Of a DNA stretch of 36,565 bases, positions 6,442 through 12,862 are shown in pieces. Position 1 is the first letter of the stretch. Every line of letters begins with the position of its first letter. The translations under genes were made by a program, and so were the position numbers. The notes beneath the pieces are model-generated. The model saw only the letters and a list, made by a program, of their open reading frames with translations, had not been told where the DNA came from and ran no database searches. Source of the DNA: Candidatus Bathyarchaeia archaeon. Its GTDB lineage: Archaea > Thermoproteota > Bathyarchaeia > Bathyarchaeales > Bathycorpusculaceae. The stretch spans positions 1-36,565 of the forward strand of contig JBEKKX010000023.1 in the NCBI GenBank assembly GCA_050010515.1, read 5' to 3'.

Positions 6442-6470
6442 GGGTTGATGATCTGCTTTGAGTAAGAAAC

Positions 6471-6484
6471 GAAAATCCTTTAAA
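6471..6484 (+). promoter_or_regulatory. BRE/TATA promoter
   Basis: GAAAATCCTTTAAA about 36 nt before ATG 6521, which has a GGTG SD-like element. Confidence 0.5.
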
Positions 6485-6520
6485 CAAGATTCACCTATTC
6501 AGAATAAGAATGGTGTTAAG

Positions 6521-7120
6521 ATGGAAAAAACCAATATACCTCTGACTCGAGACGCACTAGTCTCTATGCAAGTCATAGATGCAAAAGGACGATTGGTTGG
6601 AAAAGTTAAAGATATCGCTTTCGCCGTTGGAAAGACGGGCATTGCCTTGTCAGTGGAGAATGAGGCTGGGGAAATCCAACACATCCCCTGGGAAGATGTT
6701 CAAGCAGCATCAGACTTCATACTTCTAAAGGCAGTTCCACAAAGCACTAGTCAACAGAAGCAGCAGCAACCCGTTCAAACTAGGTCTCTGAGTGAGGAAG
6801 AAAAGGTTTTTGGGCCTTATGAGCAGCAGCAACCCGTTCAAACTGATGTTCAGGAACAGTCAACTCAACCACTTTGCCCAACATGCAATCAACCTCTCAC
6901 ATGGATTCCGCAATACAAAAGATGGTACTGCTACAACGACAAGAAATACGTTTCAGTTGGGAAGAAAAGGTTTTTGGGTCTTATGAACGGCAGCAGCAAC
7001 GTTCAAACTGATGTTCAGAAACAGTCAACTCAACCACTTTGCCCAACATGCAATCAACCTCTCACATGGATTCCGCAATACAAAAGATGGTACTGCTACA
7101 ACGACAAGAAATACGTCTAA
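6521..7120 (+). CDS. PRC-barrel protein with two tandem C-terminal Zn-ribbon-like motifs
   Basis: MQVIDAKGRLVGKVKDI...IPWEDVQAASDFILL (PRC barrel); two copies of CPTCNQPLTWIPQYKRWYCYNDKKYV; ATG 6521 preferred over TTG 6458. Confidence 0.85.
   Translation: MEKTNIPLTRDALVSMQVIDAKGRLVGKVKDIAFAVGKTGIALSVENEAGEIQHIPWEDVQAASDFILLKAVPQSTSQQKQQQPVQTRSLSEEEKVFGPYEQQQPVQTDVQEQSTQPLCPTCNQPLTWIPQYKRWYCYNDKKYVSVGKKRFLGLMNGSSNVQTDVQKQSTQPLCPTCNQPLTWIPQYKRWYCYNDKKYV
6796..7116 (+). repeat. ~165-bp tandem direct repeat, plus a 23-bp partial copy at 6759-6781
   Basis: 6836-6951 and 7001-7116 are identical except for one base; 6796-6835 and 6960-7000 are similar with indels. Confidence 0.95.
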
Positions 7121-7153: not shown

Positions 7154-7792
7154 TTAATTTTTAGCCGTTTCATTTAGCATGGGCTTTTCCAATATTGTGA
7201 TTGTTCCGTTTTTTCCAAGACGGAGTTGCTTTTTAGCCTTAAACATAGCCACGTGCGCATTCTTTACTTCTATACAGTTACCTACTGAAACGGCGTTTAC
7301 CTGTTGGTCCCAGAGGCAAAGCATAATTTTTCCCGTTTCATCTCCTATCCATGCGTTAGAAACAAGAGCGTTGTCCCTAAATTGAGTGTGAACCTTGGAT
7401 GGCTCAGAAGTTTCCAACACTTTGGCAATTACATTTACCTTTTTCATGCCTACTCGTAGATTCTCTATCTTCATATGTGTAGGGGCCGGGTTTTGCTTTG
7501 CGATCTCTTTTCGGACTCTGCTTGTATCCATCCAATTATCGAATGAAACATCCTTTTGTGAGAGAGTTTCTTCGGGAACCCTGAATTGCGCAATTACTTT
7601 ACTATTTTTAGTTATTAGGAAGATGGCTTCGTTGTTAACACTTCCACGGTATTCAACCGTTAAGTCTCCACATGCTGATTTCCCGTGTTCTTTTGCTTGA
7701 ATTAAAGCCTGAAATAGTTCGGTAGGATAAACTTCATGTTGTGCTGAAATGAAAGCAAGCTGATCTTCCAATGTTGGCTTTTTTGATTTCAT
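7154..7792 (-). CDS. ssb: Single-stranded DNA-binding protein (single OB fold) with N-terminal extra domain
   Basis: IENLRVGMKKVNVIAKV...IGDETGKIMLCLWDQQ...GNCIEVKNAHV...QLRLGKNG is a crenarchaeal SSB/RPA OB signature. Confidence 0.85.
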   Translation of the reverse strand: MKSKKPTLEDQLAFISAQHEVYPTELFQALIQAKEHGKSACGDLTVEYRGSVNNEAIFLITKNSKVIAQFRVPEETLSQKDVSFDNWMDTSRVRKEIAKQNPAPTHMKIENLRVGMKKVNVIAKVLETSEPSKVHTQFRDNALVSNAWIGDETGKIMLCLWDQQVNAVSVGNCIEVKNAHVAMFKAKKQLRLGKNGTITILEKPMLNETAKN

Positions 7793-8009
7793 ACTAATTT
7801 TTTCCTCTTTATAGCGAATTATCTTGAAGAAAGCAAATGTTAGTTTTCAAAATTTACTTTTTCTTGATTAATTCTGACAGTTTATTACTGATATCGTGTT
7901 AACTATATAGGTTTAGCTATGAAAAATCGGAATTTTCAGGGTAATTTGTATGATTTGCCTTGACGCGTTATGGGTTTGTTCTTTGTCCATAAAGGAAAAA
8001 GACTAGTAC

Positions 8010-8017
8010 TTTATAAT
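8010..8017 (+). promoter_or_regulatory. TATA box of the NHEJ operon
   Basis: TTTATAAT about 40 nt upstream of TTG 8057, with purine-rich sequence upstream. Confidence 0.4.
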
Positions 8018-8056
8018 GTATCTATGTAAACAAGTTGCTTTGAGACTTAACGGTCT

Positions 8057-8944
8057 TTGGTGAAAATTGTGACGGAGGATCTAAGAGAATTAACTAAAGT
8101 CAAGTTAAGCAATTTGGATAAAATCTTTTACCCAGAAGTTAATGTTAGCAAAGGACAAGTCATCGAGTACTACATTAAAATGGCGCCGAAAATGCTACCG
8201 ATTATGACTGATAGACCGTTAGTTCTAACCAGATACCCTGATGGCGTTAATGGCAAAAACTTCAGTTTTTTTGAAAAAGACGCTCCACAAGGTACGCCAG
8301 AATGGATTAAAATAAAAACAATTTACTCCCCAACGTCCCAACGAGACGTCCACTATATCGTTTGCAACAACTTGGATACGCTTATTTGGCTTGCAAACTT
8401 GGCAGCATTAGAAATCCACATGCCCTTCTCCAAGATTAACGCTCTGGATAAGCCTGATTTACTATTTTTTGATATTGACCCTGAACCACCAGCAACGTTG
8501 AGCGATGCCGCAGAGGTTGCGCTTTTGCTTAAAGACAAACTGCTCGATTTAGGACTTACACCTTTCATTAAGACTTCGGGCAAAAAAGGTCTTCATGTCG
8601 TAATTCCAATAGTTCCAGAGCATAGTTTTGAAGAAACAAGGGCTTTTGTGCATAAAATCGGAATCGACTTAGCCAAGGAAAGTGACATTATTGTTTCCGA
8701 ATTCAAGGATACAAAGAAGCCGGGAAAGGTTTTCGCCGATTACCTCCAGAATTCGCCAATGCGGACAATGGTGGTTCCTTACAGCTTAAGGCCGACGCCT
8801 CAAGCTTCTGTTTCGACACCTTTAGAGTGGGCTGAAATAAAGAAAGGCATAAACCCCTCTGACTTCAATATTTTTAGTGTGGTTGAACGGAAACTTGATT
8901 CGTGGAAAAATATTTTTGAAAAAAGAGTTAAACTGGAGATTTAA
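8057..8944 (+). CDS. ligD: Stand-alone LigD polymerase domain (AEP-family NHEJ primase-polymerase)
   Basis: LSNLDKIFYP, RPLVLTRYPDG, FFDIDPEP (DxD), KTSGKKGLHV, FADYLQN, PYSLR, VSTPLEW. Confidence 0.96.
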   Translation: MVKIVTEDLRELTKVKLSNLDKIFYPEVNVSKGQVIEYYIKMAPKMLPIMTDRPLVLTRYPDGVNGKNFSFFEKDAPQGTPEWIKIKTIYSPTSQRDVHYIVCNNLDTLIWLANLAALEIHMPFSKINALDKPDLLFFDIDPEPPATLSDAAEVALLLKDKLLDLGLTPFIKTSGKKGLHVVIPIVPEHSFEETRAFVHKIGIDLAKESDIIVSEFKDTKKPGKVFADYLQNSPMRTMVVPYSLRPTPQASVSTPLEWAEIKKGINPSDFNIFSVVERKLDSWKNIFEKRVKLEI

Positions 8945-8946
8945 TT

Positions 8947-9771
8947 ATGACGCAGGAAGATTTAGAAAAAAAGCAAAGTGAAAAAGTTAGTGCGGCTGTC
9001 CCGAGAAGGTCAATTTGGTCGGGAAGCATCACAATCGGTTTAGTAAATGTCCCTGTTAAATTGTATTCCATGATTTATGACAAGGGAATAAATTTCCATT
9101 TCTTGCATAAAGTTGACGGTCAACCTTTGAAATACGTTAAAATGTGCACTAAGGACGACAAGATTGTACCTTGGAACGAGGTCATGCGAGGCTATGAGGT
9201 AGCTAAAAACGAGTATATAGCATTTGATAAGAAAGAGTTAGATGCTGCAAAACCTGAATCTGACAGCCGAATTAGAATTAGCAAGTTTGTAGATTACTTC
9301 TCGGTTGACCCAATTTACTTTGATAAGACTTACGCTTTGATGCCTACAAAAAACAAGGAAGCTTACACTTTACTTTTAAGGGCGCTTGAAAGAAAAAACA
9401 AAGCTGGCGCTGCACGAATAACCCTGCGAACGAAAGAGTATCCTGCGTTGTTGCATACGTACAAGGGCGCGCTGGTTTTAACAACATTACGTTATGTTTA
9501 CGATATTGTGGACCCGCAGGATTTTGAAGAGGTCAAAAAGTTAAAGGAGCCCGATAAAGCTGAGTTAGATATGGCTATAAAAATAGTGAGTGACCTTTCA
9601 GGCGACTTTGATATTGGTGAATTTGAAGACGCTTACATGAGAAGGGTTGAAGAACTTGTAGCGCAAAAGCTGAAAGGCGAAAAAATCCAAATCGAGAAGC
9701 CGCCAGAAGTGGAAGCTAAAGGTCTCATGGTTGCGCTGCGAGAAACTCTCAAGCAGCTGGAACAGAAATGA
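8947..9771 (+). CDS. ku: Prokaryotic Ku protein
   Basis: RSIWSGSITIGLVNVPVKLY, RGYEV, VDPIYFDKTY, C-terminal LMVALRETL; no basic tail. Confidence 0.97.
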   Translation: MTQEDLEKKQSEKVSAAVPRRSIWSGSITIGLVNVPVKLYSMIYDKGINFHFLHKVDGQPLKYVKMCTKDDKIVPWNEVMRGYEVAKNEYIAFDKKELDAAKPESDSRIRISKFVDYFSVDPIYFDKTYALMPTKNKEAYTLLLRALERKNKAGAARITLRTKEYPALLHTYKGALVLTTLRYVYDIVDPQDFEEVKKLKEPDKAELDMAIKIVSDLSGDFDIGEFEDAYMRRVEELVAQKLKGEKIQIEKPPEVEAKGLMVALRETLKQLEQK

Positions 9772-11195
9772 GCCGCCACATTTACAAGCCTATGCTTGCA
9801 AAGGATGCCCCCAACCCTTTCTCGGATAAAGACTGGATTTTTGAGGTTAAATGGGATGGCTTCAGGGCCATAGCCTATATCGATGAAGAGCTTAGCATAA
9901 AAAGTCGCAATGAAAATGAATTAAAACACAACTTTCCGGAACTTGCAGAGTTAACACAGTTAGCTGATGGCTTAGTTGTTGACGGCGAAATCGTTGTGAT
10001 GAGAGAAGGCAAGCCTGACTTCCAAAGCCTACTGGAGCGTGGTCAAGCTGTTTCAGCAGGCGAGATTCAAAGGCAAGCCAAACGGGCGCCAGTAGTATAC
10101 ATTGTTTTTGATGTTTTAGAGAAGGATGACAAACCGCTCATTAAGCTTCCGTTAATGGAGCGCAAAAAGATTTTGAAGGACTCATTGAGGGAAGGCCCGC
10201 ATGTGCTCCTGTCCGATTTTATTGAGGAAAAAGGAGAAGCCTACTACCAACTAGCCTTAGAGAAGGGCTTAGAAGGAGTGGTGGCGAAAAAGAAAGATAG
10301 CCCCTATGAAGAAGGATTGCGAACTGGGAGTTGGTTGAAAATTAAAAAACTGAAAACTTGTGACTGCGTAATTTTCGGTTACACAAGAGGAGAGCAATCT
10401 AGGGAAAAAACGTTTGGCGCCTTAATTTTAGGACTTTACGATAAGGATGGCAAACCAGTTTACGTTGGCAAAGTCGGGACAGGTTTTACTGAAGAAACTC
10501 TTGGAGTTTTAAGTGTCACATTTGAAAAATTAAAAACGGAGCTTGCCCCTTTCAAGCCTGAATCTGGTGATAGGGTAACTTGGCTTGAGCCCACGCTGGT
10601 TTGTGAAGTTGCGTATCAAGTTGTAACACGGGATATGAGGTTAAGAATGCCACGTTTTAAAAGTTTAAGAGAGGACAAGTCACCAGCCGAATGCACCCTT
10701 GACCAACTAATCGAAAACAAAAAAATGGACACAGCCGAGGGCGACAGGCTCTCAGAATATGCGTCAAAACGCAATTTCAGACAGACTCCTGAGCCTAAGG
10801 GCGGAGAGAAAAAAGAAGAGAAGCTAATTTTTGTGATCCAAGAGCACCACGCAAGAAGATTGCACTATGACCTGAGGCTAGAAAGTGGTGGTGTTTTGAA
10901 GAGCTGGGCTGTTCCGAAAGGGATGCCTGAGTTTGCTGGTGAGCGGCGTTTGGCGGTGGAAACGGAGGATCATCCCTTTGAATACGCGAATTTTGAGGGC
11001 ACGATTCCTGTGGGGCAGTATGGGGCTGGGACGGTTAAAATCTGGGATAAAGGTAGTTACGAAACTAAGGTTTGGGAGAATGATAAAATTGAGTTTACGC
11101 TTAAGGGTCAAAGGCTTAAAGGACGATACATTCTTGTGCGGTTAAAGAAGGCTAAAGACGATAAGTCTTGGTTGCTGCTAAAGGGTAAAGAGTAG
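9768..11195 (+). CDS. ligD: ATP-dependent NHEJ DNA ligase with C-terminal LigD 3'-phosphoesterase (PE) domain
   Basis: Ligase motifs EVKWDG, VDGEIV, VFDVL, EGVVAK, WLKIK and OB domain GKVGTGF...RMPRF; PE motifs YASKRNFRQTPEP, QEHHARRLHYDLRLE, SWAVPKG, TEDHPFEY, YGAGTVKIWDKG. Confidence 0.96.
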   Translation: MSRHIYKPMLAKDAPNPFSDKDWIFEVKWDGFRAIAYIDEELSIKSRNENELKHNFPELAELTQLADGLVVDGEIVVMREGKPDFQSLLERGQAVSAGEIQRQAKRAPVVYIVFDVLEKDDKPLIKLPLMERKKILKDSLREGPHVLLSDFIEEKGEAYYQLALEKGLEGVVAKKKDSPYEEGLRTGSWLKIKKLKTCDCVIFGYTRGEQSREKTFGALILGLYDKDGKPVYVGKVGTGFTEETLGVLSVTFEKLKTELAPFKPESGDRVTWLEPTLVCEVAYQVVTRDMRLRMPRFKSLREDKSPAECTLDQLIENKKMDTAEGDRLSEYASKRNFRQTPEPKGGEKKEEKLIFVIQEHHARRLHYDLRLESGGVLKSWAVPKGMPEFAGERRLAVETEDHPFEYANFEGTIPVGQYGAGTVKIWDKGSYETKVWENDKIEFTLKGQRLKGRYILVRLKKAKDDKSWLLLKGKE

Positions 11196-11196
11196 C

Positions 11197-11940
11197 ATGC
11201 AAAACCTTCATTTAGGCACTATAGGCTGGAGCTACAGCTTCTGGAAGGGCAATTTTTACCCGAATAAAACTGCGTCCAAAGATTTTTTGGCTTATTACGC
11301 AACCAAATTCAGTACTGTTGAGGTTGATAGTACATTCTATCGGATTCCAAACCGGCAAGCCATAGCCAACTGGAAAGAGCAAACACCTGATGGCTTCAGT
11401 TTTTCGCTGAAGTTTCCAGGAGTTATAACGCATATTAAAATGCTCAAGGATTGCCAGAGTGAAACTGGCCTTTTTCTTGAAAGAACAAAAATACTGAAAG
11501 AAAAGCTTGGACCTTTGCTGTTGCAGTTTCCCCCTAGTTTTGGAATTGAGCGCTTATCCAGTTTGGCTGGCTTCTTGCATAAGCTTCCTAAGACTCAGCG
11601 TTACGCGGTTGAGGTGCGGGATGAAGGGTTTCTTAATGACGCGTTTTATTCGCTTTTAAGAGATAGCAATGTTGCTTTGGCATGGGTTGATAATCCCTTT
11701 ATGCCCAACATCAGCGAAGTAACTTCTGATTTTTTGTATGTTAGGTGGGAGGGAGACCGGAAAAAAGTTAAAGGAACTTTAGGTAAAATAGAAGTTGATG
11801 TCCAAGAGAGCTTGCGGTTGTGGGCAGACAAAATAAAGCCTTATTTAAGCAAAGAAATGAACGTTTTCGGCTATTTCGGTAAATATTATTCAGGCTATCC
11901 TCCTTCAGACATAAATTTACTTTTAAATCTCTTATTGTAG
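11197..11940 (+). CDS. DUF72 (YecE-like) protein
   Basis: GTIGWSY, VEVDSTFYRIP, LKFPGVITH, LGPLLLQFPPSF, AVEVR, YVRW; starts 1 nt after the ligase stop. Confidence 0.93.
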   Translation: MQNLHLGTIGWSYSFWKGNFYPNKTASKDFLAYYATKFSTVEVDSTFYRIPNRQAIANWKEQTPDGFSFSLKFPGVITHIKMLKDCQSETGLFLERTKILKEKLGPLLLQFPPSFGIERLSSLAGFLHKLPKTQRYAVEVRDEGFLNDAFYSLLRDSNVALAWVDNPFMPNISEVTSDFLYVRWEGDRKKVKGTLGKIEVDVQESLRLWADKIKPYLSKEMNVFGYFGKYYSGYPPSDINLLLNLLL

Positions 11941-11942
11941 AG

Positions 11943-11953
11943 TTTTTTTTATT
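11943..11953 (+). terminator. Archaeal oligo-T terminator of the NHEJ operon
   Basis: T8 run directly after the DUF72 stop. Confidence 0.55.
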
Positions 11954-12247
11954 TGGAGTTTCGCTTTTGGATGTAATGGCGCAGTTGGAGGAGCCCCGTC
12001 GAGGTTTCATTTTGTGTCTGATGTTGGGAAGGGGCTAAGTGTTGTTTGATTTACGTGGAAGAGGAAGCTTGCAATGGTAAAAATGGTTTTGCACAATAAT
12101 AGGTGGTTTAGGCTTTATTGTGCAGTTCAGACCTAAAATTTTCATGGTGATTTAAATAGGAAGGCTCATGCGCGGAAGAGTTGCTGGTGGAAAGGCGAAA
12201 AGAACAAAAGTTTGTTCCTTGATAAACCTCTTTATTGGTTGAGATGT

Positions 12248-12862
12248 ATGTTTTTTAAACAAATTCAACAGCACGGCGATAACTTTTCGTACATTATAGC
12301 GGACGAAGATACTAAAGAAGCGGCGGTTGTGGATTCAAGCTTTAACTCCAGCGAAATAATCAAGGTTTTAAAAGCTGAAAAATTCAATTTAAAGTACATC
12401 ATAAATACTCATGGACACTCCGACCATACTGCTGGAAACACAGAGTTAGCCTCTATTTTTGGGGCGAAATTGGTTGCTTATAAATTGTCAAAATTGACTT
12501 GCGATGTTGCAGTTGAAGATGGCGATGTGTTAACTGTTGGCGGGGTTTCGATAAAGGTGATTTATACGCCGGGGCACACTGTGGACAGTATTTGCTTGCT
12601 AGTGGATAATAAGAAGCTGTTGACTGGTGACACTTTATTTGTGGGTGAATGTGGAAGGACAGACTTGCCTGGCGGCAGCTCCAAAACAATGTATGACAGT
12701 TTGTTCAATAAGCTCCTAAAACTGAATGATTCTGTGGAAGTTTATCCGGGGCATGATTATGGGTTGAAGCCTTCGTCAACCATTGGCGAGGAAAAAAAGT
12801 CTAATTATACGTTGCAGCCGAGGAGCCTTGAAGATTTTATCGCGTTTATGAAGGAATTGTAA
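12248..12862 (+). CDS. MBL-fold metallo-hydrolase (glyoxalase II/ETHE1-like)
   Basis: THGHSDH, TPGHT, TGDTLF, GRTDLPGG, YPGHDY; ATG 12248 is the probable start. Confidence 0.92.
   Translation: MFFKQIQQHGDNFSYIIADEDTKEAAVVDSSFNSSEIIKVLKAEKFNLKYIINTHGHSDHTAGNTELASIFGAKLVAYKLSKLTCDVAVEDGDVLTVGGVSIKVIYTPGHTVDSICLLVDNKKLLTGDTLFVGECGRTDLPGGSSKTMYDSLFNKLLKLNDSVEVYPGHDYGLKPSSTIGEEKKSNYTLQPRSLEDFIAFMKEL

Follow-up and report, generated by a model that had tools for sequence, protein, structure and literature searches.

The archaeo-prokaryotic non-homologous end-joining (AP-NHEJ) system of Methanocella paludicola, reportedly described by Bartlett et al. in 2013, comprises Ku, a polymerase (Pol), a 3'-phosphoesterase (PE) and a ligase (Lig), each as a separate protein. 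In bacterial LigD these enzymatic modules are joined in the order Pol-PE-Lig in Mycobacterium, PE-Lig-Pol in Pseudomonas and Agrobacterium, and Lig-Pol in Bacillus. Here we analyse contig JBEKKX010000023.1 of the Candidatus Bathyarchaeia archaeon assembly GCA_050010515.1, a stretch of 36,565 nucleotides referred to below as the window, in which a run of genes at 8069–11940 encodes homologues of the same four proteins followed by a protein of the DUF72 family. We regard this locus as most probably a chromosomal AP-NHEJ operon of a Bathyarchaeia archaeon, long resident in its lineage, with activities assigned by analogy to characterized homologues; a core function in end joining is very likely.

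Published accounts describe NHEJ as extremely rare in archaea (PMC7554672), and a 2026 review places archaeal NHEJ exclusively in Methanocella paludicola (PMC12993045). Of the 243 archaeal genomes of one survey, 10 had Ku together with a ligase domain and 230 a LIG domain without Ku (PMC7719229). The Nitrososphaerales, which like the Bathyarchaeia include soil archaea of the same phylum-level group, are reported to have a complete NHEJ complex (Ku and ligD) gained from bacteria in their ancestor (Abby et al. 2020, PMC7554672). A preprint holds that archaeal NHEJ genes do not lie in one operon and that Asgard lineages are without a complete set (10.1101/2023.09.30.560322). In Methanocella, PE is operonic with Pol and Lig, all as separate proteins (PMC4797286), in agreement with the initial annotation of the locus, which had named Methanocella as the characterized case.

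The Bathyarchaeia operon differs from the Methanocella system in that the ligase carries PE at its C-terminus, the operon includes Ku, whose stop overlaps the ligase start, and DUF72 is appended. All modules of bacterial Ku and LigD are homologous to those of the operon, which pass the curated domain cut-offs; the operon departs from bacterial LigD in that Pol is split off and the order is Lig, then PE. What appears to be new in it, on comparison of the sequences, is the single operon with Ku inside, the Lig-PE fusion and a conserved, apparently dedicated DUF72. The initial annotation had allowed that the same operon might already be on record for this lineage; no description of a Bathyarchaeia end-joining system, and no paper treating DUF72 together with NHEJ, was found in a full-text literature search that had most subscription journals outside its coverage.

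Organization of the operon

The elements of the operon are as follows.

8069–8944, plus strand: NHEJ primase-polymerase of the LigD Pol/AEP type, 291 residues from GTG 8069 (Pfam LigD_Prim-Pol)
8947–9771, plus strand: Ku, 274 residues (Pfam Ku, TIGR02772)
9768–10745, plus strand: predicted ATP-dependent ligase module, residues 1 to about 326 of the 475-residue Lig-PE protein (DNA_ligase_A_M, DNA_ligase_A_C)
10746–11195, plus strand: predicted 3'-phosphoesterase module, residues from about 327 to 475 of Lig-PE (LigD_N)
11197–11940, plus strand: DUF72 TIM-barrel protein, 247 residues, last gene of the operon (Pfam DUF72)
11943–11950, plus strand: run of eight T, two bases past the DUF72 stop (direct reading)

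Comparisons were made with loci collected in a Lig-PE scan of one genome per prokaryotic species, which gave 265 relatives, the best 79 loci being kept for counts; a locus is called assessable where it has enough DNA on the relevant side. Since the 79 were picked by likeness in Lig-PE and are mostly of one ancestry, the counts that follow measure retention and not independent origins. Protein alignments drew on the same 79 loci after rows with less than 85% query coverage or an in-frame stop had been dropped and comprise, window included, 67 Lig-PE, 65 Pol, 70 Ku, 65 DUF72 and 35 SSB-like sequences.

The initial annotation had described four genes joined by a 2-nt gap, an ATGA overlap and a 1-nt gap and closed by a T8 terminator. 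Direct reading confirmed all three junctions: TAA-tt-ATG between Pol and Ku, ATGA shared by Ku and Lig-PE, and TAG-c-ATG between Lig-PE and DUF72. The Ku/ligase overlap is retained in 52 of 62 related loci, and overlapping or abutting frames of this kind would favour co-expression of the operon's parts. The T8 run, which follows the DUF72 stop as TAG-ag and then eight T, is likely an archaeal oligo-T terminator. It is present as described but poorly kept: 26 of 67 related loci have at least five consecutive T no further than 60 nt from the end of DUF72, and the run is thus only partly conserved.

All of the Pfam and NCBIfam domain models for Ku, Pol, PE and Lig pass their cut-offs, and the recognized catalytic residues are conserved across the homologue alignments of 65–67 sequences. 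On both counts the initial annotation, which had read Ku plus all three LigD activities with apparently intact catalytic motifs, holds. Pairwise ratios of nonsynonymous to synonymous substitution (dN/dS; NG86, against orthologues of 70–90% identity) are rough since dS is near saturation, with medians of 0.055 for Ku (29 pairs), 0.067 for Pol (42 pairs), 0.074 for Lig-PE (16 pairs) and 0.082 for the divergent SSB-like gene (30 pairs). With the value for DUF72, given below, all five genes are under purifying selection, their ratios lying far below 1.

Polymerase and Ku

Pol matches Pfam LigD_Prim-Pol at 1.1e-78 and TIGR02778 (ligD_pol) with 247.4 bits against a cut-off of 214.7. Its closest solved structure is the Methanocella chain 5dmu, "NHEJ Polymerase", which is its best match by sequence in the PDB (1e-48). 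All 65 sequences share D139, D141, D228 and H180, and the three acidic residues, which we take to be the catalytic ones of this AEP-type enzyme, align with those of the Methanocella chain. The initial annotation had placed the gene at 8057–8944. The frame was confirmed, but the start is more likely further in: the longest open reading frame begins at TTG 8057 (295 residues), whereas several relatives have ATG in the alignment column of GTG 8069 (16 orthologous intergenic regions) and a conserved Shine-Dalgarno-like GGTG lies at 8059–8062, 6 nt upstream of that GTG, which together favour GTG 8069.

Ku matches Pfam PF02735 (2e-39, 135.9 bits against a cut-off of 25) and TIGR02772, Ku_bact (244.9 against 150), and is of the bacterial one-domain type. 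Its PDB matches are the Ku chains 9vnq (5.7e-42) and 9i91 and 8v53 (both about 1e-35). Pol, Ku and PE are each single-copy in the metagenome-assembled genome (MAG) to which the window belongs, designated G000, while two further ligases, of replicative type, are encoded on its contigs C34 and C30.

The Lig-PE fusion

Ligase and phosphoesterase models map to the same 475-residue protein: DNA_ligase_A_M at residues 8–193 (1e-34), DNA_ligase_A_C at 212–304 (3.7e-26) and LigD_N at 358–458 (1.6e-41). The ligase module consists of nucleotidyltransferase and OB domains followed by a linker. TIGR02779 (NHEJ_ligase_lig) scores 273.6 against a cut-off of 227.75 and TIGR02777 (LigD_PE_dom) 193.9 against 144. 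All full-length LigD models were missed, in keeping with a split enzyme whose Pol is a separate gene (NF007210, 444.3 against 989; NF004628, 416 against 895; TIGR02776, 237.2 against 373.2; NF007211, 142.6 against 774).

The adenylation lysine of DNA ligases lies in the motif KxDG and is accompanied by further nucleotidyltransferase motifs. In the ligase module K28 of KxDG, D72/G73/E74, E169/G170/K174 and K191 are each present in 67 of 67 sequences, and the motif residues as a whole (K28, D72–E74, F114–D115, E169–K174 and K191/K193) are conserved in 66–67 of 67. In the PE module H360, H366, D368, R370, H402 and Y406 are likewise found in 67 of 67. Aligned to structure 3p43, these six correspond to His36, His42, Asp44, Arg46, His78 and Tyr82 of the Methanosarcina barkeri enzyme MbaPE. 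That enzyme lost its activity when any of the first five was replaced by alanine, and as Y82A it kept its phosphodiesterase activity (PMC3082917). Structure 3p43 is also the best PDB match of the module (2.4e-50 over residues 328–472), so that PE is nearer to the shorter Methanosarcina type than to the Methanocella PE, 5dmp (2.9e-32).

The initial annotation had proposed a gene and domain layout unlike that of the characterized systems. This stands with respect to Methanocella and to the three LigD orders represented in NCBIfam, but the order Lig-PE was found elsewhere. When 1.84 billion representative proteins were searched with a profile built from 33 Lig-PE sequences, 5,999 matched at E ≤1e-30. 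Among the best 150 of these, nine (P0001, P0003, P0007, P0008, P0011, P0020, P0115, P0117 and P0128) were collinear with the query over both modules in one stretch, while P0002 aligned in two stretches. By Pfam, P0001, P0002, P0020 and P0115 have the order Lig-PE, and P0008 (an incomplete sequence), P0011, P0117 and P0128 the order Lig-PE-Pol. In most others of the best 150 the ligase is central or C-terminal in a protein of 480–960 residues, consistent with the orders PE-Lig(-Pol) and Pol-PE-Lig. Judged from these matches, Lig-then-PE is a minority architecture, unlike that of the characterized enzymes yet not confined to this lineage.

The Methanocella, Mycobacterium and Pseudomonas homologues, from which every activity is here inferred, suggest a model for the operon's action in which a Ku homodimer would thread onto the broken DNA end and recruit the enzymes. 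The stand-alone Pol would bridge the ends and fill them, with a preference for ribonucleotides; PE would strip 3'-phosphates and trim the added ribonucleotides; and the ligase would seal the nick. With PE tethered to the ligase C-terminus, trimming and sealing would take place on one polypeptide.

Conservation of gene order and distribution of Ku

The order of the core genes is well kept. Ku abuts the ligase gene in 75 of 77 loci, the exceptions being one 31-nt gap and one ligase-only paralogue. Pol lies directly upstream of Ku in 65 of 75, with one inserted gene in 8 more (L027:2821–4029, and likewise L037, L041, L044, L052, L066, L076 and L080). This insert of about 1.45 kb, which splits the operon, was considered as a further repair factor and rejected: it encodes a 402-residue aldo/keto reductase with a 4Fe-4S dicluster domain and is a passenger.

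Most of the loci (71 of 79) carry the label Bathyarchaeota or Bathyarchaeia, mainly in MAG series from peat, bog, fen, palsa and soil, and a further one belongs to Candidatus Bathycorpusculum termitum. Of the remaining seven, two bear the label uncultured archaeon and one each Atabeyarchaeum deiterrae, Thermoproteota, Nanoarchaeia, Methanosarcinales and Acidoferrum. A search of G000 for small-subunit (SSU) rRNA found none, and its taxonomy rests on the labels of relatives. These labels, together with the placement of the genome in a class where Ku is frequent, bear out the Bathyarchaeia-like host of the initial annotation. The assembly labelled Candidatus Acidoferrum sp., a bacterium (L073/G471), carries a contig with the Bathyarchaeia operon and its flanks. 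Its Ku match is identical in place and score to that of G009, a genome of the window's own genus, and for this reason the label is not evidence for a bacterial host; it looks to be wrong.

Of 36 other species of the genus, 28 gave a Ku match; a first draw from the order's remaining families gave one in a single genome of 24. A draw across the class, limited to genomes at least 80% complete, gave Ku in 126 of 401 Bathyarchaeia genomes, or 77 of 260 high-quality genomes and 22 of 132 genera, with an uneven spread over families: 66 of 147 genomes in f1, 25 of 53 in f24, 5 of 25 in f7, and 27 of 57 in six further families together. The statement of the initial annotation that full Ku, Pol, PE and Lig sets are rare in archaea thus agrees with the literature, which calls archaeal NHEJ rare, but does not hold inside the Bathyarchaeia.

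The finished chromosome of the Asgard archaeon Candidatus Atabeyarchaeum deiterrae (CP147780.1; L067:3348–7131) carries an intact Pol-Ku-LigPE-DUF72 operon, with Pfam-confirmed proteins 55–65% identical to those of the window. Ku was found in 2 of 151 genomes of its phylum, the centre genome included. Taken together, the domain searches indicate that Ku-based end joining is frequent in particular Bathyarchaeia lineages and sporadic in the Asgard sample.

At the level of the order, Ku-positive genomes are mostly of 2–3.5 Mb and the Ku-negative families of 1.1–1.9 Mb, a comparison of sizes made without statistics. It fits the association of NHEJ with larger genomes reported in bacteria (PMC7719229). 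A search for deletion scars in five Ku-negative genomes of the genus showed that the flanking metallo-beta-lactamase-fold gene and orf187 are likewise absent there or lie on separate contigs.

The DUF72 protein

The last gene of the operon belongs to a family with solved structures, and we know of no member with an established function. The protein matches Pfam PF01904 at 2.6e-56 (191.5 bits against a cut-off of 25.3) and is predicted with confidence to be a TIM barrel (pLDDT 94.4). It shares family and fold with TM1631 (1vpq), its PDB sequence match (8e-20), and with EF0366 (1vpy), and these two are the first structural matches of the model (VIA-align Z 24.9 and 24.5). The predicted barrel fold is of the xylose-isomerase/endonuclease IV/UvdE class. 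The active sites of TIM barrels sit at or just after the barrel strands, and it is there, in the model, that the invariant polar residues of the DUF72 alignment lie: E42, K72, H79, Q110, E139, R141, R183, K229 and D238, of which the first seven are identical in TM1631 in the 1vpq alignment. The protein differs from the E. coli YecE type, missing the YecE equivalog NF007637 (98.4 against 412).

In G000 the operon copy is the one intact DUF72 gene. An open frame of 44 residues at C22:55642–55761 matches only the C-terminal end of the family (E 1.3e-4) and may be the remnant of an unlinked paralogue that other species of the genus have kept. A tree was built from 34 copies linked to the operon and 16 unlinked ones from Bathyarchaeia, these being the first entries of the DUF72 match list; one long branch with 100/100 support, present in all 200 bootstrap trees, divides the two sets. 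Such a separate, long-branched clade of linked copies points to specialization. Among the 55 genomes of the genus searched for both genes, 39 have Ku and DUF72, 5 Ku only, 2 DUF72 only and 9 neither; the genes being adjacent and the genomes kin, this co-occurrence shows joint retention or loss only.

Two published analyses bear on the family. TM1631 was predicted to have an endonuclease IV-like DNA site, with DUF72 as a likely repair nuclease (PMC3828134), and DUF72 was found enriched near polB2 operons and likened to UvdE (PMC11791011). Against this background, the operon-linked DUF72 could be an additional enzyme by which the system processes ends or lesions, a possibility that we take seriously while holding it somewhat short of probable. 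A narrower form, in which the linked clade would be a dedicated fifth end-joining enzyme acting as a metal-dependent TIM-barrel nuclease or phosphodiesterase, we put forward tentatively and with some doubt. Such an enzyme would clean damaged or blocked termini, or incise lesions adjacent to the break, before Pol, PE and the ligase act.

The SSB-like gene and the divergent intergenic region

Two elements adjoin the operon upstream.

7154–7792, minus strand: SSB-like protein, 212 residues (open reading frame; Pfam Ssb-like_OB)
7793–8068, no strand: divergent intergenic region (sequence and alignment of 16 orthologous regions)

The SSB-like protein consists of an N-terminal domain (residues 1 to about 105) and a C-terminal OB fold (about 108–201), the latter matching Pfam Ssb-like_OB (PF21473) at 1.6e-12 over residues 112–199 (47.9 bits against a cut-off of 24). 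Every NCBIfam SSB/RPA equivalog, PRK06461 included, was missed (best 79.4 against 176). By sequence the OB fold matches the Sulfolobus-type SSB (1o7i/2mna, 1e-13) and human SOSS-B1 (3e-7) in the PDB. In the predicted model (pLDDT 79.3) the Foldseek match to 1o7i is 4e-8 with a root-mean-square deviation (rmsd) of 1.7, the whole-model list consists of OB folds throughout, and structural comparison with Sulfolobus SSB 1o7i and human SOSS-B1/hSSB1 gives rmsd values of 1.3–1.7. Pfam gave no family for the conserved N-terminal domain of about 100 residues, and its best Atlas score, 0.79, was uninformative. The protein thus differs from the crenarchaeal single-OB SSB by this extra domain; it is also without a long C-terminal tail, unlike Sulfolobus SSB, whose tail is long and flexible.

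Of 72 assessable loci, 53 have the gene upstream of Pol in divergent orientation. In the genus its orthologue (at least 66% identity) tracks the operon, Ku-negative genomes having mostly paralogue-level matches only. Copies with both the N-domain and the OB fold occur in G000 in the window (7154–7792) and on C26, C49 and C50, the family was matched in 115 of 120 genomes of the genus, and by sequence it constitutes a lineage-specific paralogue family. A 203-residue SSB on C6, beside a helicase, looks to be the canonical SSB of G000. Separately, contig C5 (L114:3837–6651) encodes a 97-residue stand-alone OB-fold protein just upstream of a bacterial-type uvrB. A part for the SSB-like protein in end joining, where it would bind single-stranded overhangs or displaced strands, we consider unlikely.

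The intergenic region contains a TATA-like TTTATAA at 8011–8017. Strongly conserved non-coding blocks were seen at 7812–7922 and 7987–8003, nearer to the SSB-like gene than to Pol, and one conserved block has a TATATA core; these may represent promoter or operator sites or a small RNA.

Alternative readings of the locus

The genes for the four core activities could make up the end-joining system by themselves, with DUF72 and the SSB-like gene as mere neighbours and DUF72 trapped ancestrally as an unrelated TIM-barrel enzyme. We hold this possibility to be evenly balanced. A number of results weigh towards it and against a part for DUF72 in the system. DUF72 is far commoner than Ku across the class (354 of 401 genomes, often in several copies, against 126) and was found in 9 of 14 control genomes, E. 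coli included, thus also in Ku-less model organisms; because the family is nearly universal and has several paralogues, class-wide co-occurrence with Ku says nothing. No ku or ligD gene lay within 8 kb of DUF72 on bacterial plasmids in the 4 loci examined of 173 plasmid records with a DUF72 match, a small and taxonomically narrow sample, and no fused DUF72-LigD form occurred among the longer homologous proteins searched, which is weak evidence. DUF72 is missing behind PE in L014, L057 and L062 and broken by stops in L030, and its median dN/dS is the highest of the five genes (0.160, 15 pairs). Below TM1631 and EF0366, structural matches reach a plateau at Z 11.7–13.2 on which repair nucleases (endonuclease IV, 5zhz at 13.2 and 1qtw at 11.7; the ASFV AP endonuclease at 12.8; UvdE at 11.9) are tied with sugar isomerases and epimerases (12–13), so that the fold search does not separate the two, and the DUF72 alignment has a single invariant histidine, H79. 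As for the SSB-like gene, G000 has six Ssb-like OB loci and four copies of the N-domain, and the paralogues stand in unrelated neighbourhoods, next to ABC transporters, a zinc-finger/PIN pair and cofactor genes. The gene is also absent from 19 more distant loci and its orthologue from several Ku-positive genomes of the genus, and its link to the operon is weak because it belongs to a paralogue family. On the other side, and with the limit that the loci are largely of one ancestry, no more than 150 nt separate the PE stop from the beginning of DUF72 in 72 of 75 loci, down to 44–55% protein identity and across labels from other phyla, including the Atabeyarchaeum- and "Methanosarcinales"-labelled assemblies; the linked copies form one long-branched clade; and the gene is under purifying selection.

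Two further readings concern the system as a whole. The module might serve another kind of end healing, such as the sealing of ribonucleotide-containing nicks or gaps, or process the termini of linear DNA from viruses or mobile elements: in archaea, Pol, PE and Lig modules of the LigD type are widespread without Ku (PMC7719229), and a role of mycobacterial NHEJ in antiphage defence has been reported (PMC12848934). We consider this improbable, since the operon includes Ku, whose frame overlaps that of the ligase, its neighbours are ordinary genes of the chromosome that are kept in finished chromosomes, and a Pfam and gene survey of the window showed neither integrase nor CRISPR nor any other genes of mobile elements or defence. 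The operon might also have come from bacterial contamination or a chimeric contig, as the initial annotation had allowed, or from very recent transfer. Movement of NHEJ genes between bacteria and archaea is on record (PMC7719229, PMC7554672), and the window is the entire contig C23 of a 2.38-Mb MAG in 66 contigs, 98.5% complete with 2.15% contamination, in which no SSU rRNA was found. Its composition is nonetheless that of the genome: the tetranucleotide correlation of the contig with the rest is 0.981 (other contigs, 0.945–0.997), its GC content of 0.415 is typical, and the five genes fall at the 35th–86th percentile in codon usage among open reading frames of like length and within the 5–95% range in GC content at third codon positions. 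The same locus with both flanks recurs in many Bathyarchaeota-labelled assemblies, single-contig chromosomes such as L022 among them, and Ku is found in most other species of the genus (above). Contamination, chimerism or very recent transfer is therefore barely credible, and the comparisons indicate that the operon is native to the archaeal chromosome and has long been resident in the lineage.

Genes surrounding the operon

In the closer relatives the upstream flank consists of a membrane protein, an open reading frame of no assigned family and a PRC-barrel/zinc-ribbon protein, and the downstream flank of a metallo-beta-lactamase-fold gene and a glycosyltransferase. At its end the PRC-barrel protein of the window (6458–7120) has two near-identical modules, each some 30 residues long and bearing a CxxC zinc-ribbon-like motif; its Pfam zinc-ribbon matches are weak. 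The metallo-beta-lactamase-fold gene (12212–12862, 216 residues) begins 270 nt past DUF72 in the window, separated from it by the T8 run. In some relatives (L018, L019 and L021 among them) it lies only about 40 nt past DUF72, and there it may be co-transcribed with the operon. Further downstream, a long cluster of genes on one strand occupies 13338–36223. It encodes some ten glycosyltransferases, methyltransferases and a B12-binding radical SAM enzyme, together with DUF3131 and GT87-like membrane proteins, and is presumably an island for glycans of the cell envelope.

Implications for archaeal end joining

The compact Pol-Ku-LigPE-DUF72 operon is frequent in globally abundant uncultured archaea of soil, peat and sediment, contrary to the reviews. 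If its products act as their homologues do, template-free break repair would be feasible in archaea with presumably slow growth, which would change the present view of them, and the operon of Atabeyarchaeum is at odds with the published statement that Asgards are without a complete NHEJ set. The natural Lig-PE fusion lends itself to work on the coupling between 3' trimming and sealing. The operon also nominates a testable role for DUF72, which is among the oldest unexplained families with solved structures. Should DUF72 prove to be a fifth enzyme of the system, this would give a first functional handle on the DUF72/YecE family, found in most bacteria and archaea, and would mean that minimal NHEJ has lineage-specific helpers.

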